From NCBI GenBank assembly GCA_963641945.1, contig CAVIDW010000005.1, forward strand, positions 348 to 64,347: a stretch of DNA of 64,000 nucleotides, in the 5' to 3' direction. This document shows, piece by piece, positions 2,153 through 64,000 of this stretch (its first letter is position 1; every line of letters starts with the position of its first letter). Below the pieces are notes generated by a model. The model saw only the letters and a list, made by a program, of their open reading frames with translations, was not told the origin of the DNA and made no database searches. The stretch is from a bacterium. GTDB taxonomy: Bacteria; Bacillota_I; Bacilli_A; RF39; UBA660. The translations under genes were made by a program, and so were the position numbers.

Positions 2153-3538
2153 GTTAATCCTAATGCAACACAAGATCAGATTATAGAGAAAATAGCAACG
2201 CATGAGATGACACATGATATAATAAATCAAAAGACTGAAACAGGTACTAATCTATTTAGTGATGTATTAGAATATGCAAAAACAACTGAAAACTATGAAA
2301 GTGTAAGAAAAGATTTAGAAAAATCATATTCTAAGTATTATGATATTACTTCTAAAGATTTCTCACAAAAAATAGATGAAGAGATAGTAGCAAATACATT
2401 AGGAAAACAATTAAGTACTCAAGAATATATAAATAGAATTGTAAATAATAATCCAAACATAGCACAAAAAATATATAGATGGGTAGTAGATAAATTACAA
2501 ACATCTAATATAATAAAAGATAATAATGAAGTAACTGGATTTAAAAGTGAAAAACTATATTGGGAAGGTGTAAAAAATAAATTTGAAAAAGCATATAATG
2601 AGAGAAATGCAGGCTCTTCTGATGATAGTACAAGATATTCAATAGTTGGTTATGAAGGAATAAATAATTTACCAAATAGTCCATTAAAAGATGTAATGAC
2701 AGAAAAATACAAAAAAGCAAAAGAAATGCTTAAAAATAACGGAAGTAATGATTCGATTTTTAAAGAAACAAAATTTTATGTGGGAACAGATGGAAAACTT
2801 AAAATTGAAATTAGCGATGAAATGTTTGACTTAAAGATAAAAGATAATATAAAATCAGGACAAGTGTATAAAATGAAAGATTTTATAGATGATGATTATT
2901 TATTTGCATTTTATCCAGAACTGAAAGATTATGAAATAAAAATTACAAATTATGATGAAGGATTTATGATTAATACAATCAAATATGTTATAAATGGTTT
3001 TAAAAAATCAAATCCAAATGGTTCATATGGTAGTACAACAAAAACAGTATTTTTAAATGAAAATAGAAATACTGAAAAAGCTTTAAAGCAAACTCTAATT
3101 CATGAAATACAATACGCAATACAAGATATAGAAGGATTTGAAAGTGGTGCATCTTCTTTGTTAAGCAAAGAAAAATACATTAAATCAAATGGAGAAAATG
3201 AAGCAAAGTTAACTTCAAAAAGACTAGAATATGATAAAGAATATAGAAAGGCTGATCCATTTTATGCAATTCAAGAAAAACAAACAAAAGAAAGACTTGC
3301 CGCATATTACAAAAATAGAAAGATAATTGATAAATTTAAGGATAAATTATATAATTGTCTTGAAAGGAAGATTAGTCATGAAAATCCTGAAAAAGATAAT
3401 TTTAAAATTGAAACGGAAAAAAGAGGAATTAAAGATAGTGCTTCGAAGAGTAGACTAAGCAAATACGAATATTTAAAAGACGATAGTGGCGAGTTTAAAT
3501 ATTCGCTAAATTCAAAGGAAGAACCTGAAATGATATGA
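2153..3538 (+). pseudogene. 5'-truncated remnant of a large polyvalent protein of phage/conjugative-element type, with metallopeptidase-like motifs
   Basis: The frame is open from a stop at about 2150 with no credible start or RBS. It begins mid-domain (…IEKIATHEMTHDII, an HExxH motif). It also contains …KFYVGTDGKLKIEISDE… and …LIHEIQYAIQDIEGFESG…, motifs I associate with polyvalent-protein LPD-type domains. It lies directly 3' of a tRNA. Confidence 0.5.
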
Positions 3539-3577
3539 ACCTCGTTTCTATTTTGTCCAAGAAACGGGTTTCATATC
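3532..3577. repeat. 46-nt palindromic hairpin, copy A of a three-member repeat family (inverted relative to copies B and C)
   Basis: gatatgaacctcgtttct-attttgtcca-agaaacgggtttcatatc. Its reverse complement matches 63927-63967 with one mismatch over about 41 nt. Confidence 0.8.
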
Positions 3578-3697
3578 AAAAATTAAAATAATCTTCATCT
3601 TTTATTATTTATTAACAATTTTACCAGAACTCAAATAAACATATTAAATAACATTCTAAGATTAAATGCTACTTTTTGAAAACAATTTTTGTTGTGG

Positions 3698-15097: not shown

Positions 15098-16660
15098 TCA
15101 TTTTTCAAATGTTAATTCATAAATAGATTTATTATTTATAAAATAATATCCTCCTACATATGTATATGAATCTTCAAATTCTTTTATTAATTCATTATTT
15201 TTATAAATTTTTAATGTTTTGTAATCATTTATAAATCCATATCCATTATCAAGATATTTATATAGTGCATCTTTTTCTGTTATTTCTCTAGAATTTAATA
15301 AGTCTATATAGAAATATGTTGGTTTATCACTACTATTATTTATTTGAATTCTATAATAGTTTTTATTTGTTTCTGTACTATCTATATAGTAATTACTAAT
15401 ACTATCATTGTACTTTGGAGTAAATTTATAATATTCATATAGGTCTAAATCATATATTGTAAATGTTATTTTTTTATCTTTTATATTTTCTGTATAGAAG
15501 TATTTTAAATTATATTTATTTGTTTTATTATCATATTCAAATAGGGGATGAAGTCTGTTGTTAACTATTTTTTCTAATTTTTTATTACTTATTAAATATG
15601 TTTTTAAATATTTGTTTGCTTGTGATTCGTTATATGTTGATAGAATATCATTGAAACTACATTCTGGGAATGTAATTATATATAATTGATTATTTATTTC
15701 TTCAAAAGAATAACTCATTATGTCATCTTCATTATCACAATTACCATTAGGTTCAATAGGAATAGTGTAGTCTACTATTTTTTTACCTGGTTTAGTAAAT
15801 ACACTTAATGTTTTATTTTTGGTAAACATAATATAATTATCTGAATCATTATAGTTATCATTATCTATTTGAACAAGTATTTCATTTTTGAAATTTATTA
15901 AACCATATTTTTTATTTTTATAAACTATGTATGTATTATTAGTTATTTCTTTTATATAATTATATGTGTAATCTATAATAACATTTCCTTTATAATCTAT
16001 TAGTCCACATGCTTCATTTTTATGTTTTTCATCAGTATATTTACATGCTGGGATATAATCTTTATTTCTGATTAAATCTCCATCTATTCTACTCATATTA
16101 GTTAATTCAGCTGTTATTTCTTCAGTATATAAATCATAAATAAAATAGTCATGATCATTTGTTTGGAGAATAAAATATTCACAATCTTTATTATTTTCTT
16201 TATGACATATTGGTGTGATAGATAAATATAAATCAGAAATAGTTTCATTTTTAGTATTTATAAATAGATATTTATCTTCATTTTCATCATATTCAATTTT
16301 ATAATTACCATACTTATTATAAGCATAATTATTTTCTGTATTATCAAGGATTGGAGAATCATATATTTTTCCAAATGAACCAACTATATATTTATAATTA
16401 TCATTATCATGATAGTAAATTTCATTATTGATATTATCATAATTTATATATTCATCATATTTTTTTATAAGTTTAAATGATGCTGTATTAAAGTCTTCTT
16501 TTATTTCAGGAATTTTAGGCTTATCACTTGGAATAACTGTAGGTTTATCATTCTCATTCTTTTTGTAAATAATAAACATTATTAAACATGATGTTAATAG
16601 TAATGAAAAAAATATTATTAGTGATATTCTTATAATTTTATTCTTTTTTGACATAGACAC
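15098..16660 (-). CDS. Membrane-anchored WG-repeat (KWG-like) protein
   Basis: N-terminal TM (IIRISLIIFFSLLLTSCLIMFII). Repeated ...CGLIDYKGNVIIDYTYNYI... and ...KYGLINFKNEILV... units. Convergent with the flanking + strand genes. Confidence 0.6.
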   Translation of the reverse strand: MSMSKKNKIIRISLIIFFSLLLTSCLIMFIIYKKNENDKPTVIPSDKPKIPEIKEDFNTASFKLIKKYDEYINYDNINNEIYYHDNDNYKYIVGSFGKIYDSPILDNTENNYAYNKYGNYKIEYDENEDKYLFINTKNETISDLYLSITPICHKENNKDCEYFILQTNDHDYFIYDLYTEEITAELTNMSRIDGDLIRNKDYIPACKYTDEKHKNEACGLIDYKGNVIIDYTYNYIKEITNNTYIVYKNKKYGLINFKNEILVQIDNDNYNDSDNYIMFTKNKTLSVFTKPGKKIVDYTIPIEPNGNCDNEDDIMSYSFEEINNQLYIITFPECSFNDILSTYNESQANKYLKTYLISNKKLEKIVNNRLHPLFEYDNKTNKYNLKYFYTENIKDKKITFTIYDLDLYEYYKFTPKYNDSISNYYIDSTETNKNYYRIQINNSSDKPTYFYIDLLNSREITEKDALYKYLDNGYGFINDYKTLKIYKNNELIKEFEDSYTYVGGYYFINNKSIYELTFEK

Positions 16661-19662: not shown

Positions 19663-20646
19663 ATGAATAAAAAAATAATAATACTTACAATTATATTATC
19701 TTTAATAGGAATTTTATCTATATATTCTAGTAGTTATATATGGAGTTCATATAAATATGGATATTCATATAAATATTTATTAAATCAAAGTATATTTTTT
19801 ATAATTGGTATTATTATGATGAAAGTATTTTCTAAAATAAATTATAAGATATATAAAAAATATTCTAATATTTTTCTTGGAATTAGTTTTTTATTACTTG
19901 TTATTGTTCTTATACCTGGGATAGGCAGTGTTAGAAATGGAAGTAGAAGTTGGTTTGGATTATTTGGTTTTGGATTTCAACCAAGTGAAGTTTCTAAATT
20001 ATCACTTATTATTTTTACATCAAAATATTTATCAAATAATGATAATTTAAAAAGAAATACAATTAAATTTATATTACCTATATTAATGGTAATTATTGCC
20101 TTTTTTGGTGTAATAATGTTAGAACCGGATTTTGGTACTGGTATGGTTATTGTTTGTTCTTTAATAGGACTTATATTTATTAGTGGAACGGATGTATCGA
20201 TTTTTATTAAAATTGGAATAGTAGGAGTAGTTGGGATAGTAATTCTTGTTTTAATAGCTCCTTATAGATTAGATAGAATAATGTCATTTTTGAATCCATG
20301 GAGCGACCCTCTTGGAAGTGGATTTCAAATGATACAAAGTTTGTATGCAATTGGACCAGGGGGATTACTTGGCTTTGGACTTTTTAATTCAAGGCAAAAG
20401 CATTTTTATCTTCCAGAACCTCAAACGGATTTTATATTTTCAATTATAAGTGAAGAGTTTGGATTTATTGGTTGTAGTTTTTTAATTGGATTATTCATAT
20501 TACTTTTTTATAATATTGCTTGTAAGGCTATAAAGGAAACTGATTTATTTGGTAAATATTTGATATTTGGATTATTATTTTTACTTATGTTTCAAACAAT
20601 ATTAAATTTATGTGTAGTAGTAGGGCTTGTTCCAGTTACTGGGTAA
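19663..20646 (+). CDS. SEDS family protein (FtsW/RodA/SpoVE), 5' portion of a gene interrupted by a mobile element
   Basis: Polytopic protein with SEDS motifs (GSRSWF, FQPSE, PDFGT, LPEPQTDFIFS). It ends abruptly at ...GLVPVTG* where the conserved VTLPFISYGGSS should follow. That continuation is found at 28818. Confidence 0.85.
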   Translation: MNKKIIILTIILSLIGILSIYSSSYIWSSYKYGYSYKYLLNQSIFFIIGIIMMKVFSKINYKIYKKYSNIFLGISFLLLVIVLIPGIGSVRNGSRSWFGLFGFGFQPSEVSKLSLIIFTSKYLSNNDNLKRNTIKFILPILMVIIAFFGVIMLEPDFGTGMVIVCSLIGLIFISGTDVSIFIKIGIVGVVGIVILVLIAPYRLDRIMSFLNPWSDPLGSGFQMIQSLYAIGPGGLLGFGLFNSRQKHFYLPEPQTDFIFSIISEEFGFIGCSFLIGLFILLFYNIACKAIKETDLFGKYLIFGLLFLLMFQTILNLCVVVGLVPVTG

Positions 20647-20880
20647 GTCCTCCATGGTAACTGATAACGACAATTAAGTTTTGCCCTTATTTTAAGGGAT
20701 TGTTAAAGAATTAGATATTGAAATAATTGATAAAAATGAGTTGATTTTCAAAAATAGTAAAAAAATTAATAAATTTTGCAGAAAAAAAATAGGGTAATTT
20801 TGCCATTACCACAAAAAATTAAACAAAGAATAAAAATATATTTTTGATATGAATAATCTATTTTTTGCATTTTTTAATAT

Positions 20881-20906
20881 TTTAAGAAATTATGTGCATT
20901 TTCCTT
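20881..20906 (+). repeat. 26-bp perfect direct repeat, copy 1
   Basis: tttaagaaattatgtgcattttcctt, identical to 21576-21601. Confidence 0.85.
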
Positions 20907-21047
20907 CAATAATTTGCAAAAAAGTCTCAATTTTTTAAACGCTAACGGGAAAATATTCTCGTTTTGTTTATACAAACAAGAATATCAAAATTCAAGCATA
21001 TTGATGTTGAGTATGACTCTTTTCGATTTTTTTAATAAATGAATTTA

Positions 21048-21335
21048 ATTTTCAAGGATGAGACATCGGTGAAATATTTTTTTTACTTCAATAGCCTTGC
21101 CAAAATTCTTAGAAAACTTTTCATTTTTGGATAATTCTTTTAATTTTAATTCTTGTTCATCAATGGTAACTAATTGATCCTCATTAAATACATTAATAAC
21201 TTGTCAATTTGCCTTAGGAGTAAAACATTTTAAATTATTATTTAAATAAGGCAAATAATATTTTCCATAATATTTAATCGAATTGCCATTATTAATTTTT
21301 CTAGAGGTTAAAACTGCAAGAGTATAATTAATTGT
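21048..21335 (-). pseudogene. Degraded gene remnant in the left arm of the element (no start codon, internal TGA)
   Basis: The minus-strand frame reads TINYTLAVLTSRKINNGNSIKYYGKYYLPYLNNNLKCFTPKAN*QVINVFNEDQLVTIDEQELKLKELSKNEKFSKNFGKAIEVKKIFHRCLILEN. The TGA complement is at 21204-21206. Confidence 0.4.
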
Positions 21336-21575
21336 TTATTAACTAGGAGATTTTTCAAAAACAGATTCAATTTTTTATAATCTTTAAATAATAAATGTTT
21401 ATTTTTTCTTTTTTATATTAAAATAATTATTGTTCAAGTAAATCACTTCTTTCTATAATTGTATTGCAATTTAATTATAAACAATTTACTTGAACTTTTT
21501 CTGTGTAAACTTTTTTAATTTTAAAGTGTAAACCATTCTCACTTAAATAATTCCGGTTTCATTTTAGAATAAAAA

Positions 21576-21601
21576 TTTAAGAAATTATGTGCATTTTCCT
21601 T
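21576..21601 (+). repeat. 26-bp perfect direct repeat, copy 2 (about 50 bp upstream of the cargo operon)
   Basis: Identical to 20881-20906. Overlaps a possible TTGCTT -35 element. Confidence 0.85.
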
Positions 21602-21651
21602 GCTTTTTTCTTTAATTTGTATTAGCATTATAAATAATAGGAGGTAAAAAA

Positions 21652-22305
21652 ATGGAAAAGAATAGAACAGGACAAGTTATTGCATTTATAGCATTATTTG
21701 TTGGAATTATTGGTTTATCTGTTGGCTTCGCTGCATTTTCTAATACATTAACAATTAAATCTAATGCAACAGTCACTCCTGATAATAGCATTTTTAATGT
21801 TGACTTTTCTGATGATTCAACAAAAGTTCTTGTTGACCCTGTAACACCTGTAGTTACACCTAATACTTTAGTTGCTACTAATGGAACTATTGATAATACT
21901 GGTAGCCCTACAATTAGTAATATAAGTGCAACTTTTACAGAACCAGGTCAAAAGGCAGTATATACATTTTATGCTTATAATGCTGGTGAACTTGATGCTT
22001 ATTTAAAGAGTATTGCATTTGCAAATGCTACAGGCGGTTCAACTACTAAAGTTTGTACTGCACTTACTGGTACTACTGATTCTTTAGTCCAAGAAGCATG
22101 TAACGGAATTACACTAAGTGTTCAAGTTGGTAGTGAAGCTGCTACTATTGGTAGTGTTTCAAGCATTACAGGACATAAATTAGCAAAAGCGTCATCTGAT
22201 ACTGTAGTAGTTACTTTAGAATATGCTGCAAATTCATCAAGTGCTGATGGCGATTTCACTGTTAGTTTTGGTGATGTAACTTTAAATTATAGCTCAGCTG
22301 AATAA
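21652..22305 (+). CDS. Secreted TasA/camelysin-like protein with a SipW-cognate signal peptide
   Basis: AGGAGG RBS. The signal region ...GLSVGFAAFSNTLTI resembles the TasA ...GGGTWAAFND cleavage context. A later segment, FTEPGQKAVYTFYAYNAGELDAYL, resembles the TasA/peptidase M73 PGD...N.G motif. Confidence 0.6.
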   Translation: MEKNRTGQVIAFIALFVGIIGLSVGFAAFSNTLTIKSNATVTPDNSIFNVDFSDDSTKVLVDPVTPVVTPNTLVATNGTIDNTGSPTISNISATFTEPGQKAVYTFYAYNAGELDAYLKSIAFANATGGSTTKVCTALTGTTDSLVQEACNGITLSVQVGSEAATIGSVSSITGHKLAKASSDTVVVTLEYAANSSSADGDFTVSFGDVTLNYSSAE

Positions 22306-22310
22306 TTAGG

Positions 22311-23453
22311 ATGGTGATAAATGTGAAGAAAAGTTATATTAAATTAATTTGTTTTAGTTCTTTCTTCGGTTTGTTATCTATCTTCAATAGTTTTGTCTAC
22401 AGATTTCTTAGCCAAATAACATTAGATATTTTATTAGCATTTATGTTAATTATTGCCTATATGTTATTTGGTTTTGAAAAAGATAGACATAGATATATGA
22501 AGGAAATTATACTTGAAATATTGATAGTATTAATATCTTTTTTTCTCATATATTATTTATTTGGAATTATAATAGGATTTGCAAAGGCTGGTAATTATTA
22601 TGCTATAAGTTCTATGATTAATATTATTTTTCCAATTATATTTTATATTTTGCTAGGTGAAATATTACGTTATCAGTTAATGGTTAAGTCAAGTGAATCT
22701 AAATATTTGATGTATTTAGTTTGTGTATTGTTTATAATGATAGATTGTACAATTGCTTTTTCCACACATAGTCTTGATAATCGTAGGGAGTTTTTTTTGC
22801 TTATTGCAACTATTGTATTACCTAGTATTTCCAAAAATATATTATGTTCTTTTTTATGTTTTAATTTTGGATTTAAAACTTCAATTATTTATAGACTTGT
22901 TATGGAACTATATTCTTATTTAGTTTATATTGTTCCTAATCCAAATAGTTATCTTTATTCAATAATATTTTTTTTGTTACCTTTTTATATTTTATTTCAT
23001 ATAAAAAGGTTGCTTAATAAAGATAAAGTTAGTAATATAGTTGAAGTAAGAGGAGAAAAAAGAAATATTCGTTTATTATCTTTTCTTCCATTAGGTGTAA
23101 TTACATTTATTTTGGTATATTTTATATCTGGTTATTTTAGATTCTATGCAATTACAATTGCAAGTGGTTCAATGGAACCAAATATATTAAAAGGGGATGT
23201 AGTTATTGTTGATAAAAATTATGATGATTTAAAAGTTGGAGAAGTTTTAGCATATTATTATGATGACAAAGTTATTGTTCATAGAATTTATAAAATAATA
23301 GATACTAATGGTGAGTATTATATTTATACTAAAGGTGATGCAAACAATAATTATGACAATTATAAAATTGATAGGTCCATGGTTATAGGAATTGTTAAAT
23401 TTAATATCCCTTTAATTGGATATCCTACAGTTTTATTAAATGAATATTGGTAA
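22311..23453 (+). CDS. SipW-type (ER/archaeal-type) signal peptidase I fused to an N-terminal polytopic membrane domain of about 260 aa
   Basis: The C-terminal 120 aa contain ASGSMEPNILKGDVVIVD (catalytic Ser), VIVHRIYKI (His) and TKGDANNNYD. The N-terminal part contains about 8 hydrophobic helices. Confidence 0.7.
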   Translation: MVINVKKSYIKLICFSSFFGLLSIFNSFVYRFLSQITLDILLAFMLIIAYMLFGFEKDRHRYMKEIILEILIVLISFFLIYYLFGIIIGFAKAGNYYAISSMINIIFPIIFYILLGEILRYQLMVKSSESKYLMYLVCVLFIMIDCTIAFSTHSLDNRREFFLLIATIVLPSISKNILCSFLCFNFGFKTSIIYRLVMELYSYLVYIVPNPNSYLYSIIFFLLPFYILFHIKRLLNKDKVSNIVEVRGEKRNIRLLSFLPLGVITFILVYFISGYFRFYAITIASGSMEPNILKGDVVIVDKNYDDLKVGEVLAYYYDDKVIVHRIYKIIDTNGEYYIYTKGDANNNYDNYKIDRSMVIGIVKFNIPLIGYPTVLLNEYW

Positions 23454-23465
23454 GGAGTAAAATAA

Positions 23466-24614
23466 ATGGCAACGAAAAAAGAGGCCCCAAAAAAAGTTTT
23501 GAAAACTGAAGAAAAAAAAGTTTTGAAAACTGAAGAAAAAAAAGTTAAATTAAAACGTTTTCATTTTTCCTTTGGCAGAAGATTACTATTTTATTCTGCT
23601 TCGTTTTTGTGTTTGCTTTTCTTGAGCCTTTACTTTATTGCAAATTCTTTTGATTTAGTGTATGAAGAAAAAGTTTCTTTTAAAGAAACTGGAAATATTG
23701 ATTATTCAGTATGTTTAAATAAGAATGATACTTTTGAAACTGAATGCTTAGGAAAAAATAGTAGTTATAATTATGTTGCTAGCCTAATAAATAATATTTC
23801 TATTAAATTTAATTATACTTTTGGTGGTAATAAATTATATTTAGAAAAACCACTTAAATATAAAATTGTAGGCAAGTTAATTATTAAGAATAAAGAAAAT
23901 TCTTATATATATTCTGAAAAAGAATATGTTTTGAAGAATATTTCGAGTGATAATATTATAACTATTGGTTCTTACTATAGTATTGATGACTCAATTAGTA
24001 TTGATTATAGCTACTATAATAATATTGCTAATCAATTTAAATCTGAGTATGGTGTTGATATTGATAGTTATTTAGATGTTTCATTTATTGTTTATAATGA
24101 AGTTGATGCAAAATATAATATTCCTAATTCAAGTAATTTAAATATTAAGATTCCTCTTTCTTTAAAATCAATTAAATTTGAAGTTAGTGAACTTAATAAT
24201 AATTTGGAACAAACTATTATTAAGGAGTATTTGTCTATTTCTGATTATGTTGCATTAATTTTTGGTATTTTATTATTTAGTTTTTCAATATATTATTTTA
24301 TTCGTTTTATTATTTTGATTTTTCCTTTACTAAGAAAGAAAAACATTTATGACAAAATGTTAAGCAAGTATATGAAGGAATATGATCGACTTATTGTAGA
24401 AACTGAATCTCTTCCTATATTTTCTGATTATAATATGCTTAAAATTAAAAGTTTTGAAGAACTACTTGATGTAAGAGATAATTTAAGATTACCTATTATG
24501 TATTATAATGTAACACCGCATAAAAAAGCTTACTTTTATATATTACATGTAAATAATTTGTATGTGTATACATTGAAAGAGGTTGATTTGATTAATGAAA
24601 AAAAGAGTGAATAA
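23466..24614 (+). CDS. Bitopic membrane protein with a large extracytoplasmic domain (DUF5305-like by recollection), accessory to the SipW locus
   Basis: Lys-rich N-terminus with a tandem KKVLKTEE repeat. TM at LLFYSASFLCLLFLSLYFI and a second TM at VALIFGILLFSFSIYYFIRFIILIF. Overlaps the next gene by 20 nt. Confidence 0.5.
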   Translation: MATKKEAPKKVLKTEEKKVLKTEEKKVKLKRFHFSFGRRLLFYSASFLCLLFLSLYFIANSFDLVYEEKVSFKETGNIDYSVCLNKNDTFETECLGKNSSYNYVASLINNISIKFNYTFGGNKLYLEKPLKYKIVGKLIIKNKENSYIYSEKEYVLKNISSDNIITIGSYYSIDDSISIDYSYYNNIANQFKSEYGVDIDSYLDVSFIVYNEVDAKYNIPNSSNLNIKIPLSLKSIKFEVSELNNNLEQTIIKEYLSISDYVALIFGILLFSFSIYYFIRFIILIFPLLRKKNIYDKMLSKYMKEYDRLIVETESLPIFSDYNMLKIKSFEELLDVRDNLRLPIMYYNVTPHKKAYFYILHVNNLYVYTLKEVDLINEKKSE

Positions 24615-26736
24615 TATAATTAATACTAATTATAAAAGAAGAAATATTTTATTGTGTTTTCTTCTTTCTTTTATTGTAATTTGTTTAAGTGTTGGTTTTT
24701 CTTCTTTTCAAAATAACTTAACTATTGATTCAGCCTTAGCCCATGTTAGAGTTGATAAAGATGTGCGTATTATGGGTGTCCATGTTAATAGTGTTAATGA
24801 TGCTATTAGTAATTATGAAAACTATAATGTCAGTAGCATTGAAGGTGGTGCAATATTAAATTCTGCAGATTCATATGTTATATATGATGTTAATGTATAT
24901 AATTTAGGTAATGTTGATGTAGCTATTGGTAGTATAAATATCGATAATGAAAATTTAAAAGTAGAATTTGTTGATTATAATATAGGTGATAAAATCTGTA
25001 ATGATGATAAGTGTAAATTAGGTGTTAATAAAGTTATTAAGGTGAAAATATCTTATGTTGATGGTAAGTTTGATTCTAGTACTTCAAATCAAGGATTTGT
25101 TGTTAATTTTACTTTTGGTGCAGTTTATAGTGCTACTTATGTTGGGTTTGATGATACTACTGGATTTAATACTACTGCAATTGAAGGTATGGAATTTATT
25201 ACATCTTTTACATATGATTCTTCAAAAAGTTTATCTGTTACTATGAATGGAAAAAGTCTTTCAAGTGGTACTGGTTATACTTATAATAATGGTGTATTTA
25301 GTATTGCAAGTGTTAAAGGTGATATTATTATTACTCTTGGAGATATGAGTTTTATGAAAAGTACAATTATTTCTATAGCTACTAGTGGAGGATCTGAGGA
25401 AGATTTAACTTTATATGATTTGGATACAATGACAACAGATGATAAAACAACTACATTTAGTAATATTGCAACCGATAGTGGTATTATTAGAACTAAAGGT
25501 ATAACTGGTAGTAGTAATGTTCTTGTTTATAGAGGTGATATTACTAATAATTATGTAAGTTTTGCAGGTAATATATGGAGAATTATGCAAGTTGATGAAG
25601 ATGGTAATTTAAGACTTATTTTAAATAATTCTATTGGGTCTAGTAAATATAATACTACATCTTCAATATCAAGTGAGGATCAAGCTGAAACTATTTTGGG
25701 ATATGCAAATAGCATTGTAAAAACTACTTTAGATTCATGGTATACATCAAATTTAACTAATTATAGTGAATATATTGTTACAAGTAAATTTTGTAATGAT
25801 TTCACTTATGAAGAAAAAACAAGTACAGGTGCATCAAATAATGTTTACTATTATCAATCTTATTTGAATGTAGGTTCAGATGCTGCTTTGTATTCTCCTT
25901 CTCTTGTTTGTCCTTCTAGTTCTATTTTTACTAGCAATATTGGTTTAATAAGTGTAGAAGAGGCTGTTCTTGCTGGTACTGCTTATAGGGCAAATAATAC
26001 AAGTTATTATTTATATTCTTCTTCTGCTTGGTGGACTTTATCTCCTGCTTATTATGATTCTGCTCAAGGAAATGGTGGTGTATTCTTTGTTACTGCTTCA
26101 GGTGGTGTAACTGACTGGAGTAATAGTTTACTAACTTCAACTTATGGACTTAGACCTGTCATCACAATTGATGGTAATTTACAGTTTACTGGGGACGGAA
26201 CTTTATCTAATCCATATAAGCTATCTGGTGAATCATCAGCAACAATTTCAAAAGTTAATATAACTGATTTATCAACATTAAGTACAGGAAAGTATTATAT
26301 TACTAATACTGGAGGTAATTATAATGTTGATGGTCTTGTATCTTCTATTGTAAGTGGTATAGGACTTGTTGGTACAAATACTGCAACTTTCTCTGATGAT
26401 AAAGAAACTATTCTTAGTACATCTGGTACATTATTTAGTTTTATAAATGGACAGGAAACTACAGATGGTTATTTATATCAAGTTGTTACTGATGATAACA
26501 AATATTTGACAATAGGGGCAACTGATTATAGTGTTACTTTAAGCGATACTCCTGTATATTTGAAGGTAAGTTTAGTTACAAATTCTAGTTATACTGGTAG
26601 AATTACTATTTCAGATGAAACTGGTACAATGTATTTAAACTTTTATGGTGCTAATAATACAAATGATGATAAATTTGCTGGATGGAATGAACTTGATAAA
26701 AATGATTATATGGCGCTTTATGCTGTTACGTCATAG
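24595..26736 (+). CDS. Large (713 aa) secreted surface protein with a SipW-cognate-like signal motif
   Basis: The signal region ...CLSVGFSSFQNNLTI is paralogous to that of 21652. It has an N-terminal TasA-like domain (YVIYDVNVYNLGNVDVAI). The central region contains IWRIMQVDEDGNLRLI ... AWWTLSPAY ... GLRPVITI motifs, typical of Firmicute surface-protein domains. Confidence 0.6.
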   Translation: MKKRVNNIINTNYKRRNILLCFLLSFIVICLSVGFSSFQNNLTIDSALAHVRVDKDVRIMGVHVNSVNDAISNYENYNVSSIEGGAILNSADSYVIYDVNVYNLGNVDVAIGSINIDNENLKVEFVDYNIGDKICNDDKCKLGVNKVIKVKISYVDGKFDSSTSNQGFVVNFTFGAVYSATYVGFDDTTGFNTTAIEGMEFITSFTYDSSKSLSVTMNGKSLSSGTGYTYNNGVFSIASVKGDIIITLGDMSFMKSTIISIATSGGSEEDLTLYDLDTMTTDDKTTTFSNIATDSGIIRTKGITGSSNVLVYRGDITNNYVSFAGNIWRIMQVDEDGNLRLILNNSIGSSKYNTTSSISSEDQAETILGYANSIVKTTLDSWYTSNLTNYSEYIVTSKFCNDFTYEEKTSTGASNNVYYYQSYLNVGSDAALYSPSLVCPSSSIFTSNIGLISVEEAVLAGTAYRANNTSYYLYSSSAWWTLSPAYYDSAQGNGGVFFVTASGGVTDWSNSLLTSTYGLRPVITIDGNLQFTGDGTLSNPYKLSGESSATISKVNITDLSTLSTGKYYITNTGGNYNVDGLVSSIVSGIGLVGTNTATFSDDKETILSTSGTLFSFINGQETTDGYLYQVVTDDNKYLTIGATDYSVTLSDTPVYLKVSLVTNSSYTGRITISDETGTMYLNFYGANNTNDDKFAGWNELDKNDYMALYAVTS

Positions 26737-26775
26737 TAAATTTGTAAGATTATTTAAAAATTAGTTTGAATTTCT

Positions 26776-26820
26776 GATATGAACCTCATTTCTTGAACAT
26801 AGAAATGAGGTTTTTATATG
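26776..26820 (+). repeat. Hairpin repeat copy B (terminator-like) upstream of the recombinase module
   Basis: gatatgaacctcatttct-tgaacat-agaaatgaggtttttatatg. About 85% identical to copy C, including the following ATG. Confidence 0.75.
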
Positions 26821-26955
26821 TCAAAATTAAATTATGAAAAAACAATTAGCTTATTAAAATTACCAGATAATAATGATGAAAATAAAAATGTAAAAATTAA
26901 TAAACATTATTTTTATTTATCAAGAATAGATTTAATAGAGGTGAACTCTCTATGA
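26818..26955 (+). CDS. Small hypothetical protein (45 aa) of the recombinase module
   Basis: MSKLNYEKTI... Its N-terminus is homologous to the ORF starting at 63972 (MTKISCEERI). Overlaps the next small ORF (ATGA). Confidence 0.35.
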   Translation: MSKLNYEKTISLLKLPDNNDENKNVKINKHYFYLSRIDLIEVNSL

Positions 26956-27086
26956 AACGAATTGATATAAATGGAAAAAAAAGAAAATTAAATATACAGT
27001 TTATTTATAAAAAAGATGGAATAAAACTTGAAGATATACTAAAGGAGGGGTATTTATGCTACTTAAGAAATTTAAAAGTGAAATGA
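26952..27086 (+). CDS. Small basic protein (44 aa), loosely TnpW-like; candidate accessory or directionality factor
   Basis: MKRIDINGKKRKLNIQFIYKKDGIKLEDILKEGYL... Preceded by an AGAGGTG RBS. Lies directly upstream of the serine recombinase. Confidence 0.35.
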   Translation: MKRIDINGKKRKLNIQFIYKKDGIKLEDILKEGYLCYLRNLKVK

Positions 27087-27159
27087 TTTACTTTTTCGAT
27101 GTAATAAGGCATCATGAGGTATTAGTATTGCATAAATTAAATTTGGAGGGACTTTATTA

Positions 27160-28731
27160 ATGGAATATATTTGTGGCGCTTATGATAGATTATCTGATGC
27201 TGACAATAAAATTGATGAAAGTTCTTCTATTCAAAGCCAAAAAATTATAATTGATTCTTTTGCTAAATTTAATAATCTAAAAATATATAAACATTATGTA
27301 GATGATGGATACTCTGGAGGAAATTTTGATAGACCTGGATTTCAAGAAATGATAAGTGATATTGAAAAAGGAAAAATTAATTGTGTTATTACAAAAGACC
27401 TATCTCGTTTAGGTCGTGAAATGTATAAAACTGGTAAATATATAGAAGAATATTTTCTAGAAAAAGGCATTAGATATATTGCAATTAATGATTCCTATGA
27501 TTCTAATATAGGGGATTCTATGTTAGGAATTAGATTAAGTGTTAATGATTTATATTTAAGAGATGTTTCTAAAAAGGTTAAGACTTCTCTTCGTGCTAAA
27601 CAGAATAGAGGAGATTATATAGGATCTTTTCCATTATATGGATATAAAAAAGATCCTAATGATAGACATAAATTAATTGTTGATGAAGATGTTAGACATA
27701 TTGTTGAGTTAATTTATGATTTAGCACTAGAAGGTAAATCAGCCAATAAGATAGCAGAACATCTAACATTAAAGAAAATACCTATTCCAATTGTTTATAA
27801 AGGAGATCCTAGAGCAAAAGATGTAGTTGAAAATGATGGTTATGGTATATGGAAAAGACAAACTATCAAAGGAATTTTAACTAATCAAATGTATATTGGT
27901 AATATGGTTCAAAATACACATAATAAGATAAGCTATAACTCTAAAAAACTAAGAAAAACTGCAGAAGATGAATTAATTATTGTTGAAGGTACACATGAAG
28001 GTATAATATCCAAAGAAATATTTGAAAAAGTACAAGAAATAATTAATAGTAAAACCAAGACAAGAGTTACAAGTCGTCAATTAGAATATTTACTAGGTGG
28101 TTTACTTATATGTAGGGAATGTGGTCGCTCTATAAGAATTGGTGAAGATGTTATTAAATCTGGCATAAGGCATTATACACAGTGTAATTTATATACAAGA
28201 AAAGGGAAATTTGGAGTATGTTCATCACATAGAATTAATTACGATTGGCTAGAAGAAGATGTTATTGAATATTTACAAGAAGTGTGTAAAAAATTTTGTA
28301 AATATTATGATATAAATAATTTAGCTGATAATTCTAAAAATATTGTTATTAAAAATATTAATGAAATTAAAAAGAAAATTGAAAGATTTGAAGTTTTATT
28401 AAGTTCTCATCAAACAACCATTGATAATTTATATATTGATAAAGTTAAGGGATTAGTTGATGAAGAAATGTATAAAAGAATCTATGAAAAAACAAAAACT
28501 GAAATAACTAAAATAAATCATGAATTAGAGATTTTAAATAAAAGACTTTTAGCTAATCAAAATGAAAAGTCTAGTACAAGCTTTAATAGATGTAAAAGTG
28601 CTGTTATGGATTATATGTCTTTAAAGAATCCAACTAAAGAACAAATTCAAAGATTGGTAAAAAAGATTGAGATTGACAAAGATAAAAAAGTATATGTGTA
28701 TTTAAAATTTCCAGAATTAGAAGAGATTTAA
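27160..28731 (+). CDS. Large serine recombinase (523 aa)
   Basis: Resolvase catalytic domain: YDRLSDAD (nucleophile Ser), DDGYSGGNFDRPGFQEM, KDLSRLGRE. Recombinase domain. Zinc ribbon: CRECGRS...C...C. C-terminal coiled-coil. GGAGGG RBS. Confidence 0.9.
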   Translation: MEYICGAYDRLSDADNKIDESSSIQSQKIIIDSFAKFNNLKIYKHYVDDGYSGGNFDRPGFQEMISDIEKGKINCVITKDLSRLGREMYKTGKYIEEYFLEKGIRYIAINDSYDSNIGDSMLGIRLSVNDLYLRDVSKKVKTSLRAKQNRGDYIGSFPLYGYKKDPNDRHKLIVDEDVRHIVELIYDLALEGKSANKIAEHLTLKKIPIPIVYKGDPRAKDVVENDGYGIWKRQTIKGILTNQMYIGNMVQNTHNKISYNSKKLRKTAEDELIIVEGTHEGIISKEIFEKVQEIINSKTKTRVTSRQLEYLLGGLLICRECGRSIRIGEDVIKSGIRHYTQCNLYTRKGKFGVCSSHRINYDWLEEDVIEYLQEVCKKFCKYYDINNLADNSKNIVIKNINEIKKKIERFEVLLSSHQTTIDNLYIDKVKGLVDEEMYKRIYEKTKTEITKINHELEILNKRLLANQNEKSSTSFNRCKSAVMDYMSLKNPTKEQIQRLVKKIEIDKDKKVYVYLKFPELEEI

Positions 28732-28817: not shown

Positions 28818-28910
28818 AGGTGTCACTCTTCCTTTTATAAGTTATGGTGGTTCATCACTTCTTGTTAGTATGGCAAGCATTGGAATAATACTTAATATTG
28901 GTGGTAAATA
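28818..28910 (+). pseudogene. 3' fragment of the split SEDS gene, carrying a +1 frameshift
   Basis: ggt gtc act ctt cct ttt ata agt tat ggt ggt tca tca ctt translates to GVTLPFISYGGSSL. An extra c (cttCctt at about 28860) then shifts the frame. The expected tail LVSMASIGIILNIGGK* is in the +1 frame. Confidence 0.8.
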
Positions 28911-29180
28911 ATATATCCATTGTATAAAATTAAAAAATGAAATAATTGTTGAAGCAAAAGAAGATTATCAGTTGTATAATGATTTACTTAATAATTTTAA
29001 AAGTCAGTATGATGTTTCTAATGATGGACTTTTAATTGTTTCTTTTGTTATTGATAATAATATTGAAAGTGATTTAATTGATAGAAAAATAAATAAAGAA
29101 AGTACTATTGAATTAAATATTCCATTTTATAGCAGTATATAATTAATGTAGAAGTAATTCTGCATTTTTTAATAATTGTA

Positions 29181-29207
29181 TTAGCACTCTATATTGACAA
29201 GTGCTAA
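29181..29207 (+). promoter_or_regulatory. CIRCE operator (HrcA binding site) overlapping the clpB promoter
   Basis: TTAGCACTC-tatattgac-AAGTGCTAA compared with the consensus TTAGCACTC-N9-GAGTGCTAA (one mismatch). TTGACA (29194-29199) and TATAAT (29216-29221) are embedded in and next to it. Confidence 0.8.
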
Positions 29208-29248
29208 TTTTTGAGTATAATATAGTATGTAAATAAGAAGGGATAGAT

Positions 29249-31345
29249 ATGTTTAATATGAATAATGAAGAAAATGAAAATGTATTGGAAAAATATGGTC
29301 GTAATATAAATGAAGATGTTAAAAATCATAAGATTGATCCTATTATTGGACGTGATGATGAAATTCGTAGTATAACTAGAATTTTATCTAGAAAAACTAA
29401 AAATAATCCAGTTCTTATTGGTGAACCTGGAGTAGGTAAAACAGCAATTGTGGAAGGACTTGCTCAAAGAATTGTTAAAGGTGATGTACCTGAAAGTTTA
29501 AAAAATAAAACTGTTTGGGAACTTAATATGGCATCTTTAATAGCTGGTGCCAAATATAGAGGTGAATTTGAAGAAAGACTTAAAAAAGTTCTTGATGAAG
29601 TTAAAAAGAGTGAAGGAAATTTAATTATGTTTATTGATGAAATTCACTTAATAGTTGGTACTGGTGCTGTAGATGGAGCTATGGATACTGGTAATATTTT
29701 AAAACCAATGCTGGCTCGTGGTGAAATTCATGTGATAGGTGCAACTACTTTAAATGAATATAGAATGTATATTGAAAAAGATGGTGCTTTAGAACGTAGA
29801 TTTCAAAAAGTAATTATTAGTGAGCCAACTGTTGAAGATACTATAACAATACTTCGTGGACTTAAAGAAAGATTTGAAATTTATCATGGAGTTACTATAC
29901 AAGATAAAGCATTAGTTAGTGCTGCAACGTTATCAAATAGATATATTACTGATAGATTTTTACCTGATAAAGCAATTGATTTAGTTGATGAAGCATGTGC
30001 AACTATTAGAGTTCAAATGGATAGCGTTCCAACCTCTCTTGATGAAATAACTAGAAAAATATTAACTTTACAAGTTGAAAAAGAAGCATTAAAGAAAGAA
30101 AAAGATGAATTATCTATTAAAAGGCTTGAAAAAATTGATAATGAACTTTATACATTAAAGGGAAAAGAACAAGAACTTAGTTCTAAATGGAAAGAAGAAA
30201 AAACTATTAATGAAGAAATTAAGAAAGTTAAGTCTGATATTTCTAAATATACTTTTGAGTTTGAAGAGGCTAAAAATAATTATGATTTAGAAACTGCTGC
30301 TAGAATTAAGAATGGAGTTCTTCCTAAATTACAACAAAAACTTAAAGAATTATCTCAAGAAGGAAAAGATGGAATTTTATCTGATACTGTTACAAGTGAA
30401 GATATAGCTAATGTAATTAGTAAGTGGACTAATGTTCCAATCACTAAACTTATGAGTAGTGAAAAAGATAAAATATTACATTTGGAAGAAAATTTAAGAA
30501 AGCGTGTTAAAGGTCAAGATAAAGCTTTAAAACTTGTTAGTGATGCTATTTTAAGATCTAGAAGTGGAATTAAAGATCCTAATAGACCAATTGGTTCATT
30601 TATGTTTTTAGGACCTACTGGTGTAGGAAAAACTGAGGTTGCTAGAAGTCTTGCTTATGAACTTTTTGATGATGAACATCATATGATTAGAATTGATATG
30701 AGTGAATATATGGAAAAATATTCTGTATCAAGGTTAATAGGCGCAGCTCCTGGATATGTTGGATATGAAGAAGGTGGTCAATTAACTGAGAAAGTTAGAA
30801 GAAATCCTTATTCAATAGTACTTTTTGATGAGATTGAGAAAGCACACCCTGATGTACTTAACTTGTTATTACAAATACTTGATGAAGGAAGACTTACTGA
30901 TTCAAATGGTAGAACTGTTAACTTTAAGAATACAATTATTATTATGACATCTAATGTTGGAAGTGAATATGTTATAGGTAATGAAGAAGATAAAGTTAAA
31001 AGTGAATTAAATAAATATTTTAGACCAGAATTTTTAAATAGACTTGATGAGATTATTGTGTTTGATAAACTTTCTAAAGATGATTTAAGAGAAATTTTAG
31101 ATAAAATTATTAGTGAGATAGAAGAGAGATTAAGTGATATAAATATCAAAATTGAATTAAGTGATTCTGTTAAAGATTACTTTATTGATAATGGATATGA
31201 TCCATATTATGGAGCAAGACCTCTTAAGAGACTTGTAAATAATAAACTTGAAACTTTAATTGCTCGTAAACTTATTAATAATGAAATTAAACAAAATACT
31301 CATATTAAAGTTGATTATATTGATGGAGAACTTAATATTGATTAG
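29249..31345 (+). CDS. clpB: ClpB disaggregase lacking the N-terminal domain (698 aa)
   Basis: Begins at the ...LEKYGRNI...[38 protein letters not shown] segment, which is about residue 155 in full-length ClpB. Long coiled-coil M-domain. Second AAA+ module GPTGVGKTE. Confidence 0.85.
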
Positions 31346-63919: not shown

Positions 63920-63926
63920 TTTTAAT

Positions 63927-63974
63927 GATATGAACCCCGTTTCTTGGACAAAATAGAAACGAGGTTTTTGTATG
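63927..63974 (+). repeat. Hairpin repeat copy C
   Basis: gatatgaaccccgtttct-tggacaaaat-agaaacgaggtttttgtatg. Homologous to copy B and, in inverted orientation, to copy A. Confidence 0.75.
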
Positions 63975-64000
63975 ACCAAAATAAGTTGTGAAGAAAGAAT
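63972..64000 (+). CDS. Start of a small ORF homologous to 26818-26955, truncated by the window edge
   Basis: MTKISCEERI compared with MSKLNYEKTI, in the same position relative to the hairpin repeat. Confidence 0.3.

Follow-up and report, generated by a model that had tools for sequence, protein, structure and literature searches.

A putative surface-fibre operon organised like AbpX loci lies on a mobile element that splits ftsW/spoVE in a gut bacterium

We analysed a stretch of 64,000 nucleotides (contig CAVIDW010000005.1 of assembly GCA_963641945.1, positions 348 to 64,347; hereafter the 64-kb window) from a bacterium of the RF39 lineage of Bacilli, in which an operon that may encode a surface fibre is carried by a mobile element inserted into the ftsW/spoVE gene (Table 1). 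In the list of open reading frames (ORFs) of the window, the operon consists of four tightly packed genes on the + strand, P1 to P4, an arrangement with the very boundaries that a sequence-only reading of this DNA, made without database searches, had described. P1 and P2 are separated by 5 nt and P2 and P3 by 12 nt, and P3 and P4 overlap by 20 nt. An AGGAGG ribosome-binding site precedes P1, and a terminator-like 13-bp hairpin (26781-26813) follows P4; the G+C content of the window is ~25%. When the operon is compared with a chromosomal copy from relatives that is 85% identical, the ratio of nonsynonymous to synonymous substitution rates (dN/dS) is 0.17-0.26 for all four genes, which indicates that they are under purifying selection. 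A promoter scan gave a score no better than that of shuffled sequences, and Rfam has no match between 19 and 30 kb. The stretch upstream of the operon carries at either end a copy of a 32-nt direct repeat (20875-20906 and 21570-21601, 25 nt exact) for which the chance expectation is none. P1 follows 50 nt after the second copy, ATGTGCATTTTCCTT occurs in both copies, and the repeat was not found in the 44 related loci that were searched for it (L001-L044; all loci from other genomes are numbered in this way).

Table 1. The operon, the element that carries it and the split gene (positions in the window; the roles of P1, P3 and P4 are predictions)
Feature	Position	Strand	Description
ftsW/spoVE 5' part	19663-20646	+	327 aa, ends ...GLVPVTG + stop (20644-20646)
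Element left end, attL	20643-20819	+	crossover within GGT 20642-20644; ~175 bp of backbone
Non-coding stretch, ~0.8 kb	20875-21601	+	no ORF >42 aa; flanked by 32-nt direct repeat
P1	21652-22305	+	217 aa, putative major fibre subunit
P2	22311-23453	+	380 aa, dedicated signal peptidase I, endoplasmic reticulum (ER)/archaeal type
P3	23466-24614	+	382 aa, DUF5305 protein, putative TafG-like peptidase accessory
P4	24595-26736	+	713 aa, putative tip or minor subunit
Hairpin in 80-nt repeat	26775-26854	+	resembles IS3-like 5' end; operon/backbone junction
Backbone right part	26880-28731	+	conserved upstream stretch, 44-aa ORF (26952-27086), recombinase
Large serine recombinase	27160-28731	+	523 aa; TnpX-like; Resolvase, Recombinase, Zn_ribbon_recom domains
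attR + ftsW/spoVE 3' part	28819-28911	+	GVTLPFISYGGSSLLVSMASIGIILNIGGK then stop; begins GVTLPFISYGGSS
DUF5305 relic	28924-29142	+	72 codons, outside element, just 3' of split gene

The two exported proteins, P1 and P4, share a stretch, ...LSVGF(AA/SS)F(S/Q)N(T/N)LTI, immediately after the hydrophobic signal helix. This motif, which the sequence-only reading had singled out, holds up well: a 33-residue alignment of the two N-termini has 45% identity (pairwise E 3e-5), and P1 and P4 are its only bearers among the ORFs of the window. In P1, the signal helix covers residues 5-28, the predicted cut follows G-F-A27 and the candidate donor strand is A28-FSNTLTIKSNATV; in P4, the equivalent stretch reads GFS|SFQNNLTI, again with the cut predicted. 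Both families are best conserved at the motif. Across 133 representatives of the P1 family, the residue frequencies (in percent) are G100-F93-A93-A89-F86-S80-x-x-L92-x-I92, within a longer consensus G-F-A-A-F-S-x-x-L-x-I-x-S-S-A-x-V, and 33 relatives of P4 follow the pattern G-F/Y-S-A/S-F/Y-Q-N-x-L-x-I. The conserved stretch runs 12-15 residues past any plausible cleavage site, with alternating hydrophobic residues. A second motif, PG...N.G, had been claimed for both proteins; it is present in P1 (P98-G99...N110-x-G112), but P4 has YNLGN at this point and no PG.

In TasA of Bacillus subtilis, the cut lies in the context ...TWA|AFND, and the N-terminal strand of TasA is its donor strand. By analogy with this site and with ...TYA|QWSE of AbpX, P1 and P4 would be cut after G-F-(A/S), which in P1 (GFA|AFSN) would reproduce the aromatic-Ala|Ala-Phe context of TasA. 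Mature P1 would then start A1 F2 S3 N4 T5 L6 T7 I8, while the AbpX donor strand, released by the ...TYA|QWSE cut, is Q1 W2 S3 E4 T5 L6 S7 L8 (bioRxiv 10.64898/2026.01.04.697558). Provided that the cut follows GFA, the two strands are in the same register, position 2 being aromatic, position 6 Leu and position 8 hydrophobic in both. On the same assumption, position 2 is F in 86% and Y in 10% of the 133 representatives, position 6 is L in 92% and position 8 is I in 92%.

The second gene encodes a dedicated signal peptidase, which had been read as SipW-type. A dedicated peptidase it is, of the archaeal/ER type of signal peptidase I represented by TIGR02228, which its C-terminal 125 residues match (83.8 bits, E 1.1e-23, cut-off 51.85), and it also matches Peptidase_S24 and Peptidase_S26, but the SipW assignment does not survive, with 55.8 bits for the SipW equivalog NF046067 against a cut-off of 190. 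Unlike SipW, which is small and has ~2 membrane helices, the 380-residue P2 has ~9 hydrophobic segments (residues 8-278) ahead of a catalytic domain in which the Ser/His/Asp motifs are SGSMEP, VHRI and TKGDAN. P2 is 35% identical (E 6e-21) to the 380-aa peptidase encoded beside abpX in Pyrodictium abyssi, over the same coordinates, and the ungapped correlation of the two hydropathy profiles is 0.46, compared to <=0.24 in shifted controls. P. abyssi AbpX (217 aa) and its peptidase (380 aa) have the exact lengths of P1 and P2.

The third gene product, P3, is a DUF5305 protein, as a search with the model suspected at the outset confirmed (PF17231, E 4.8e-13). It is not the bitopic protein that had been proposed, since hydropathy places two membrane segments in it, at residues ~40-62 and ~257-286, which enclose a ~195-aa domain on the outside and leave ~95 aa as a cytoplasmic tail. 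Published work on Tafi and AbpX loci, in some of which DUF5305 is fused to the peptidase (PMC11821415, PMC12337348; bioRxiv 10.64898/2026.01.04.697558), leads us to view P3 as a probable accessory of the peptidase.

The operon probably belongs to a kind of fibre system that was described in 2025-2026 and is not a new kind. The literature on DUF5305 that we found concerns archaeal donor-strand fibres throughout. For the abpX-like loci of archaea and Bacillota, the reported gene products are a peptidase that has ten transmembrane segments, an accessory of the DUF5305 family, tip proteins and minor subunits (bioRxiv 10.64898/2026.01.04.697558). In the Haloarcula Tafi system, deletion of the peptidase gene tafD abolishes pilin processing and fibres, and the DUF5305 protein TafG has been proposed as the partner of the peptidase (PMC11821415, PMC12337348). 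The operon in the window resembles AbpX loci in having 1) an acidic beta-sandwich subunit of ~217 aa, P1, which when mature has an isoelectric point (pI) of 4.16 where AbpX has a pI of ~4, 2) a peptidase, P2, that in its size and ~9 hydrophobic segments answers to the description of an about-ten-helix enzyme, 3) a DUF5305 accessory with two membrane helices, P3, and 4) a further gene, P4, with the same N-terminal strand, whose product could be a tip or minor subunit. It differs from them in several respects: sequence similarity between the mature domains is at noise level; position 4 of P1 is Asn or Ser rather than acidic and the content of D+E is lower; genes for an SLH or LPXTG anchor, a sortase, a kinase or cyclic di-GMP signalling are not nearby; the host, a bacterium of the gut, is Mollicutes-like; and the operon sits here on a mobile element. 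What suggests the AbpX-like grouping is the architecture of the locus and the N-terminal strand, not any demonstrable homology of the core domains.

The other characterised systems are also alike in part. Like tapA-sipW-tasA of B. subtilis, the operon combines a dedicated ER-type signal peptidase with putative substrates, two proteins of one signal class, but it has no TapA-like gene, and P1 and P4 do not match the TasA models Peptidase_M73 and TIGR04088. DUF5305, in turn, is not in the Bacillus operon as described (bioRxiv 10.64898/2026.01.04.697558). The sipW-bsaA locus of Clostridium perfringens offers a further comparison with a dedicated peptidase (PMC7395162). The Tafi locus (TafA/TafE, TafD and TafG) likewise encodes a peptidase and a DUF5305 protein with pilins and a tip protein; in contrast with its Tat signals, the N-termini of P1 and P4 lack a twin-arginine motif, and whereas TafD has four membrane helices and two domains on the outside, in P2 about nine helices go with a single catalytic domain (PMC11821415, PMC12337348).

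The reading that we prefer, and to which we assign a probability of roughly 0.55, is that the operon, organised most closely like AbpX loci, specifies a TasA-superfamily surface fibre in which P1 forms the shaft and P4 a lectin-bearing tip. According to this model, P1 and P4 would be exported by Sec via their long signal helix, and P2, aided by P3, would cut both after G-F-(A/S). The cut would free an amphipathic strand (A-F-S-N-T-L-T-I...) able to insert where the beta sandwich of the following subunit is open, and we infer that through such donor-strand complementation P1 would polymerise as the shaft. Since P4 has the same N-terminal module, it would be built into the fibre, at the tip or as a minor subunit, where it would display DUF6273-like and lectin-like beta-trefoil domains, which probably bind host or dietary glycans.

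Structural models of the single chains are compatible with this mechanism. Beyond the candidate strand, P1 is predicted to fold as a beta sandwich of the jelly-roll kind, in which two Cys are conserved. In its AlphaFold2 (AF2) model, which has a predicted local distance difference test (pLDDT) score of 92.8, the beta sandwich is confident and residues 29-49 are an unpaired coil; the 10-residue blocks covering residues 21-40 have mean pLDDT of 82 and 64. The AF2 model of P4 (pLDDT 88.2) is likewise unstructured past the signal helix, with residues 40-52 below 50. An unpaired N-terminal stretch of low confidence in both proteins is compatible with donor-strand complementation, and it counts to some extent against a system that does not polymerise.

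P4 is modular. After its signal and strand, it has beta domains at residues 57-183 and 194-249, a DUF6273-like alpha/beta domain at ~253-540 with the signature WWTLSP...YGLRPVITI (relatives of P4 match DUF6273) and a beta-trefoil at ~549-711, which Foldseek matches to the ricin-B-like lectins 3nbe, 4ion and 5xg5 (prob 1.00, target template-modelling (TM) score ~0.6). Fourth genes bearing the motif are present in 11 related loci, and in seven loci (L019, L020, L022, L030, L034, L038 and L039) the fourth gene keeps residues 1-250/270 of P4 and differs in the remainder. On the side of P1, C-terminal extensions are present on 42% of the family representatives, many of them DUF6273-like and none with LPXTG. 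Such modular fourth genes and extensions are as expected for tip or minor subunits on a common shaft.

The P1 family is large, with 927 matches in one search and 1187 clusters at 50% identity in another, and it has no Pfam or NCBIfam model. Searches for known relatives of P1 returned little. Searches of Pfam, NCBIfam and PDB sequences with P1, P4 and a P1 profile gave nothing useful, and 90 relatives of P1 gave only weak matches to Ig-like or CARDB-type domains. AbpX as a query for bridging homologues found 5 close Pyrodictium relatives and nothing else. When the profile of P1 was aligned by hhalign with TasA (a single sequence, of which the first 60 residues were confirmed), only the PG..N.G stretch aligned (E 0.03). 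With AbpX, the alignment of the two profiles has E 1.1e-4 and Prob 57% over 155 collinear columns, signal peptides included. A chain of matches leading from P1 through the N-domain of P4 and the protein P0335 to Peptidase_M73 looked strong but was rejected: it was gone on leave-out, the link through P0335 being spurious, since the query alignment already contained the targets. P0335 itself, the only protein of the P4 alignment to match PF12389 (E 9e-4, below the gathering score), has only its central domain in common with P4.

Several of our results weigh against a fibre of the TasA superfamily. The hidden Markov models (HMMs) of the TasA/camelysin family, Peptidase_M73 (PF12389) and NF046066, have no match at E<=1 in P1 or P4, PF12389 has none in any of 90 P1 relatives, and TIGR04088, the model of the SipW-cognate signal peptide, has no match at E<=10 in the first 60 and 70 residues of P1 and P4, in a search where TasA as a positive control scored 41.6 bits (cut-off 19). 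No TasA, AbpA or AbpX chain is among the top 50 Foldseek matches of the P1 model in the PDB, the best of which has E 2e-3; the PDB sequence file includes the AbpX chains 9SJ2 and 9RHP, whose presence in the Foldseek library is uncertain, and Foldseek is weak on beta sandwiches, so this null result does not prove that P1 has a different fold. Without signal peptides, the hhalign score of P1 against AbpX falls to 21.2 (E 0.018), which is within the range of a column-shuffle control (n=200, maximum 21.8), and the match of P1 to the N-domain of P4 likewise goes from E 6e-9 with signal and strand to 0.02 without them. P1 has 9.5% D+E, compared to about 15% in AbpX. At position 4 of the mature protein, N accounts for 35%, S for 26% and T for 11% of the 133 representatives, where AbpX has an acidic residue described as critical for calcium-mediated complementation (bioRxiv 10.64898/2026.01.04.697558); with Asn or Ser in its place, calcium bridging may not apply. 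Finally, the operon has no LPXTG, SLH or sortase and thus encodes no anchor.

The failed searches with TIGR04088, Peptidase_M73 and Foldseek, which had been put forward as tests of a SipW/TasA-like operon, mean that P1 and P4 do not qualify as members of the TasA family in the narrow sense. The idea of a fibre operon nevertheless stands, by way of a locus architecture that matches the AbpX/Tafi type, and "AbpX-like" is therefore the better label.

The same results would suit a different system, which we judge unlikely although by no means far-fetched, in which the operon is a secretion module with a dedicated peptidase and nothing polymerises. P1 would be a glycan binder similar to a carbohydrate-binding module and P4 a multidomain lectin or adhesin, both monomers that are released or held at the membrane, and the motif that they share would serve as a recognition and cleavage signal only. 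Such a module would account for the absence of TasA matches at the level of HMMs and structure, for similarities of P1 to P4 and to AbpX that lie mostly in the signal region, and for an operon with neither an anchor nor a nucleator gene. It also fits the Foldseek matches of P1, which are only generic jelly rolls, carbohydrate-binding modules and, with E ~0.03, chaperone-usher pilins (TM <0.3; PDB and viral libraries), as well as the lectin-like beta-trefoil at the end of P4. A peptidase site, however, needs no conserved stretch of the length seen beyond the cut, with its alternating hydrophobics; the pair of peptidase and DUF5305 protein serves donor-strand fibres in the systems that have been characterised; and the N-terminal stretch of both models is unpaired. 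These points incline us to the fibre.

We collected 35 loci with P1 relatives from species-representative genomes. Nearly all are gut metagenome-assembled genomes labelled uncultured Bacilli, Tenericutes, Mollicutes or Mycoplasma, the others being a few short contigs with other labels, and P1-P2-P3 is syntenic in ~30 of the 35. The closest copy (L004-L006 and L010), 85% identical, matches positions 21629-26725 of the window only; it is chromosomal, between the genes for PBP5 and diacylglycerol kinase, with no recombinase nearby. In L004-L006, a second paralogous operon lies 8 kb downstream (L004 19244-21362), and its products in L004 are a protein of 183 aa that bears the motif SVGFAAYAQTLNI, a peptidase of 379 aa and a DUF5305 protein. 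The presence of two paralogous operons in one relative suggests that each peptidase serves its own substrates. In L011, L022, L023 and L025, the operon adjoins an intact ftsW/spoVE gene, and in L023 and L011 it is downstream of that gene. Large serine recombinases lie directly beside the operon in L025 (9073-10734) and L013 (488-2104), one of these two loci having an intact ftsW/spoVE gene nearby, and the operon is repeatedly found near recombinases. Whether homologous operons are also on mobile elements was a question raised by the sequence-only reading: this is so in one other species (L013), but in most relatives (~30) the operon is chromosomal.

In the window, the operon is indeed the cargo of a serine-recombinase element inside a division gene, as had been proposed. 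The element is 8.2 kb long, and the operon lies beside the recombinase gene, between two co-oriented halves of ftsW/spoVE. The predicted junctions are attB GTTCCAGTTACTGG|TGTCACTCTTCC and attP ...CAATCTATGAGG|GTAAGTCCTCC; the predicted 26-mer of the empty site was not found in metagenome contigs. The gene is intact in L011, L022, L023 and L025, where it reads ...PVTGVTLPF[IL]SYGGSS, and the same codon is split (…PVTG | VTLPF[IL]SYGGSS) in L046, L048-L053, L055, L057-L061, L064 and L066-L069. An independent assembly (L009) has the same right-hand arrangement, and in L013, which belongs to another species, the gene is split in the same way and accompanied by P1-P3, a decayed P4 and the gene for a recombinase that is 76% identical. 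In ~20 gut-metagenome contigs, a recombinase that is 76-94% identical is followed by the same 3' half of the gene, and 4 of these contigs show both halves. The elements that split ftsW carry no substitute for the lost 3' end. Since no sporulation genes are among the sampled ORFs of the hosts, what is interrupted appears to be a division gene, probably an essential one.

Known elements with TnpX/TndX-type large serine recombinases, and the skin element that splits sigK, provide the obvious comparisons. Our element resembles these in the Resolvase, Recombinase and zinc-ribbon domains of its recombinase, in a short GGT crossover core and in a precise split of one gene into co-oriented halves, at a site that is the same in many genomes. 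Its target, by contrast, is ftsW/spoVE, and its cargo is the fibre operon only, with no transfer, replication or phage genes.

How the operon came to be on the element can be read in part from the backbone. Positions 20566-20819 of the window, which cover the end of the split gene and the left end of the element, match ftsW-splitting elements in L064, L059 and L061, and positions 26880-27167 are 78-81% identical in L045, L048, L049, L063 and L064. Since the homology of the backbone is confined to 20566-20819 and 26880 onwards, the operon and ~0.8 kb upstream of it are an insert into the backbone. At the junction downstream of the operon is one of three copies in the window of an 80-nt hairpin repeat (3538-3580, 26775-26854 and 63926-64000), which is 83% identical to the 5' end of an insertion sequence (IS) in L011 (3538-3620; range across copies 83-93%). 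This one repeat suggests that the operon entered the element by an IS-associated insertion. A 45-aa ORF at 26818 starts with MSKLNYEK, compared to MSKLTYEDK for the IS orfA. Capture by imprecise excision from a neighbouring resident locus was considered and rejected, the left end of the element being unlike the 3' end of the split gene. Beyond the split gene, the relic is 44% identical to residues 180-215 of P3 (pairwise E 5e-8) and matches P3 homologues in many loci. Since it sits where relatives hold a resident operon, it is probably the remainder of an operon that resided beside ftsW/spoVE.

An operon carried in this way could serve the element itself, as an adhesin or fibre that brings cells into contact for transfer, like the aggregation substances of Gram-positive conjugative elements. 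The operon is inside such an element both here and in L013, and the ~20 related elements, with recombinases 76-94% identical, carry genes like those of integrative and conjugative elements, for a TraG/VirD4-like 675-aa protein, a DNA methylase and very large proteins, or else have two small genes as cargo. None of these ~20 elements carries the fibre operon, however, the element in the window has no transfer genes, the operon is chromosomal in ~30 relatives, including the 85%-identical copy, and the IS-like remnant at the junction suggests a secondary capture. We therefore consider a role in transfer very improbable.

The identity of the split gene bears on another proposal, that the operon might be linked to the spore surface. 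The 5' part matches PF01098 with E 9e-92 (profile positions 4-324/356), and its best score is with the SpoVE model TIGR02615, at 349 bits (cut-off 448.8), which, together with the fact that large serine recombinases split sporulation genes in some Firmicutes, could point to a sporulation-linked structure on an element that excises during sporulation like skin. Yet the FtsW model TIGR02614 scores nearly as high, 330.9 bits against a cut-off of 337.5, despite the 30 missing residues, and it is the loss of the protein's end that keeps both scores under their cut-offs. The gene belongs to a division cluster with mraY and a PBP2X/SpoVD-like gene, none of 20 other ORFs in the window is sporulation-specific, and the hosts are Mollicutes-like gut Bacilli represented by metagenome-assembled genomes only. 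We found nothing that ties P1-P4 to spores and, unlike for skin, no evidence of developmental excision for this element. A spore link, once conceivable, thus has next to nothing in its favour, and we rate it the least probable of all the readings considered here.

If the operon encodes a fibre as we propose, what is notable about it is 1) the missing acidic residue, 2) the large unannotated family of gut Bacilli to which P1 belongs, and 3) its carriage on an ftsW-splitting element. These might even be parts of one picture, which we put forward as a long shot: the P1 family, with its 1187 clusters and Asn in place of the acidic residue, would be a calcium-independent branch of donor-strand fibres and the main adhesive appendage of wall-reduced gut Bacilli, and the operon would have moved from beside ftsW into an element that splits ftsW. 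If this were true, excision would at once restore the division gene and delete the adhesin, and would be a switch that couples attachment to growth.

To our knowledge, nothing is known about the attachment of small AT-rich uncultured gut Bacilli, for which an operon kept across dozens of genomes, often in multiple copies, is a candidate for a lectin-tipped fibre. It would extend AbpX/Tafi-type systems from extremophile archaea and a few Clostridia to the human gut, and its carriage on a mobile element would mean that such adhesion modules can move between strains. Naming the P1 family would improve the annotation of many gut metagenomes.

Two other regions of the window stood out. Downstream of the element and the relic, clpB (29194-31345) encodes a 698-aa protein without the usual N-terminal domain, and a perfect TTGACA-16-TATAAT promoter match lies at this gene (29194-29221). 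On the - strand, the ORF at 15098-16660, which has no NCBIfam match, encodes a 520-aa protein with an N-terminal membrane helix, in a region where the G+C content is 19-20% and the skew is reversed.

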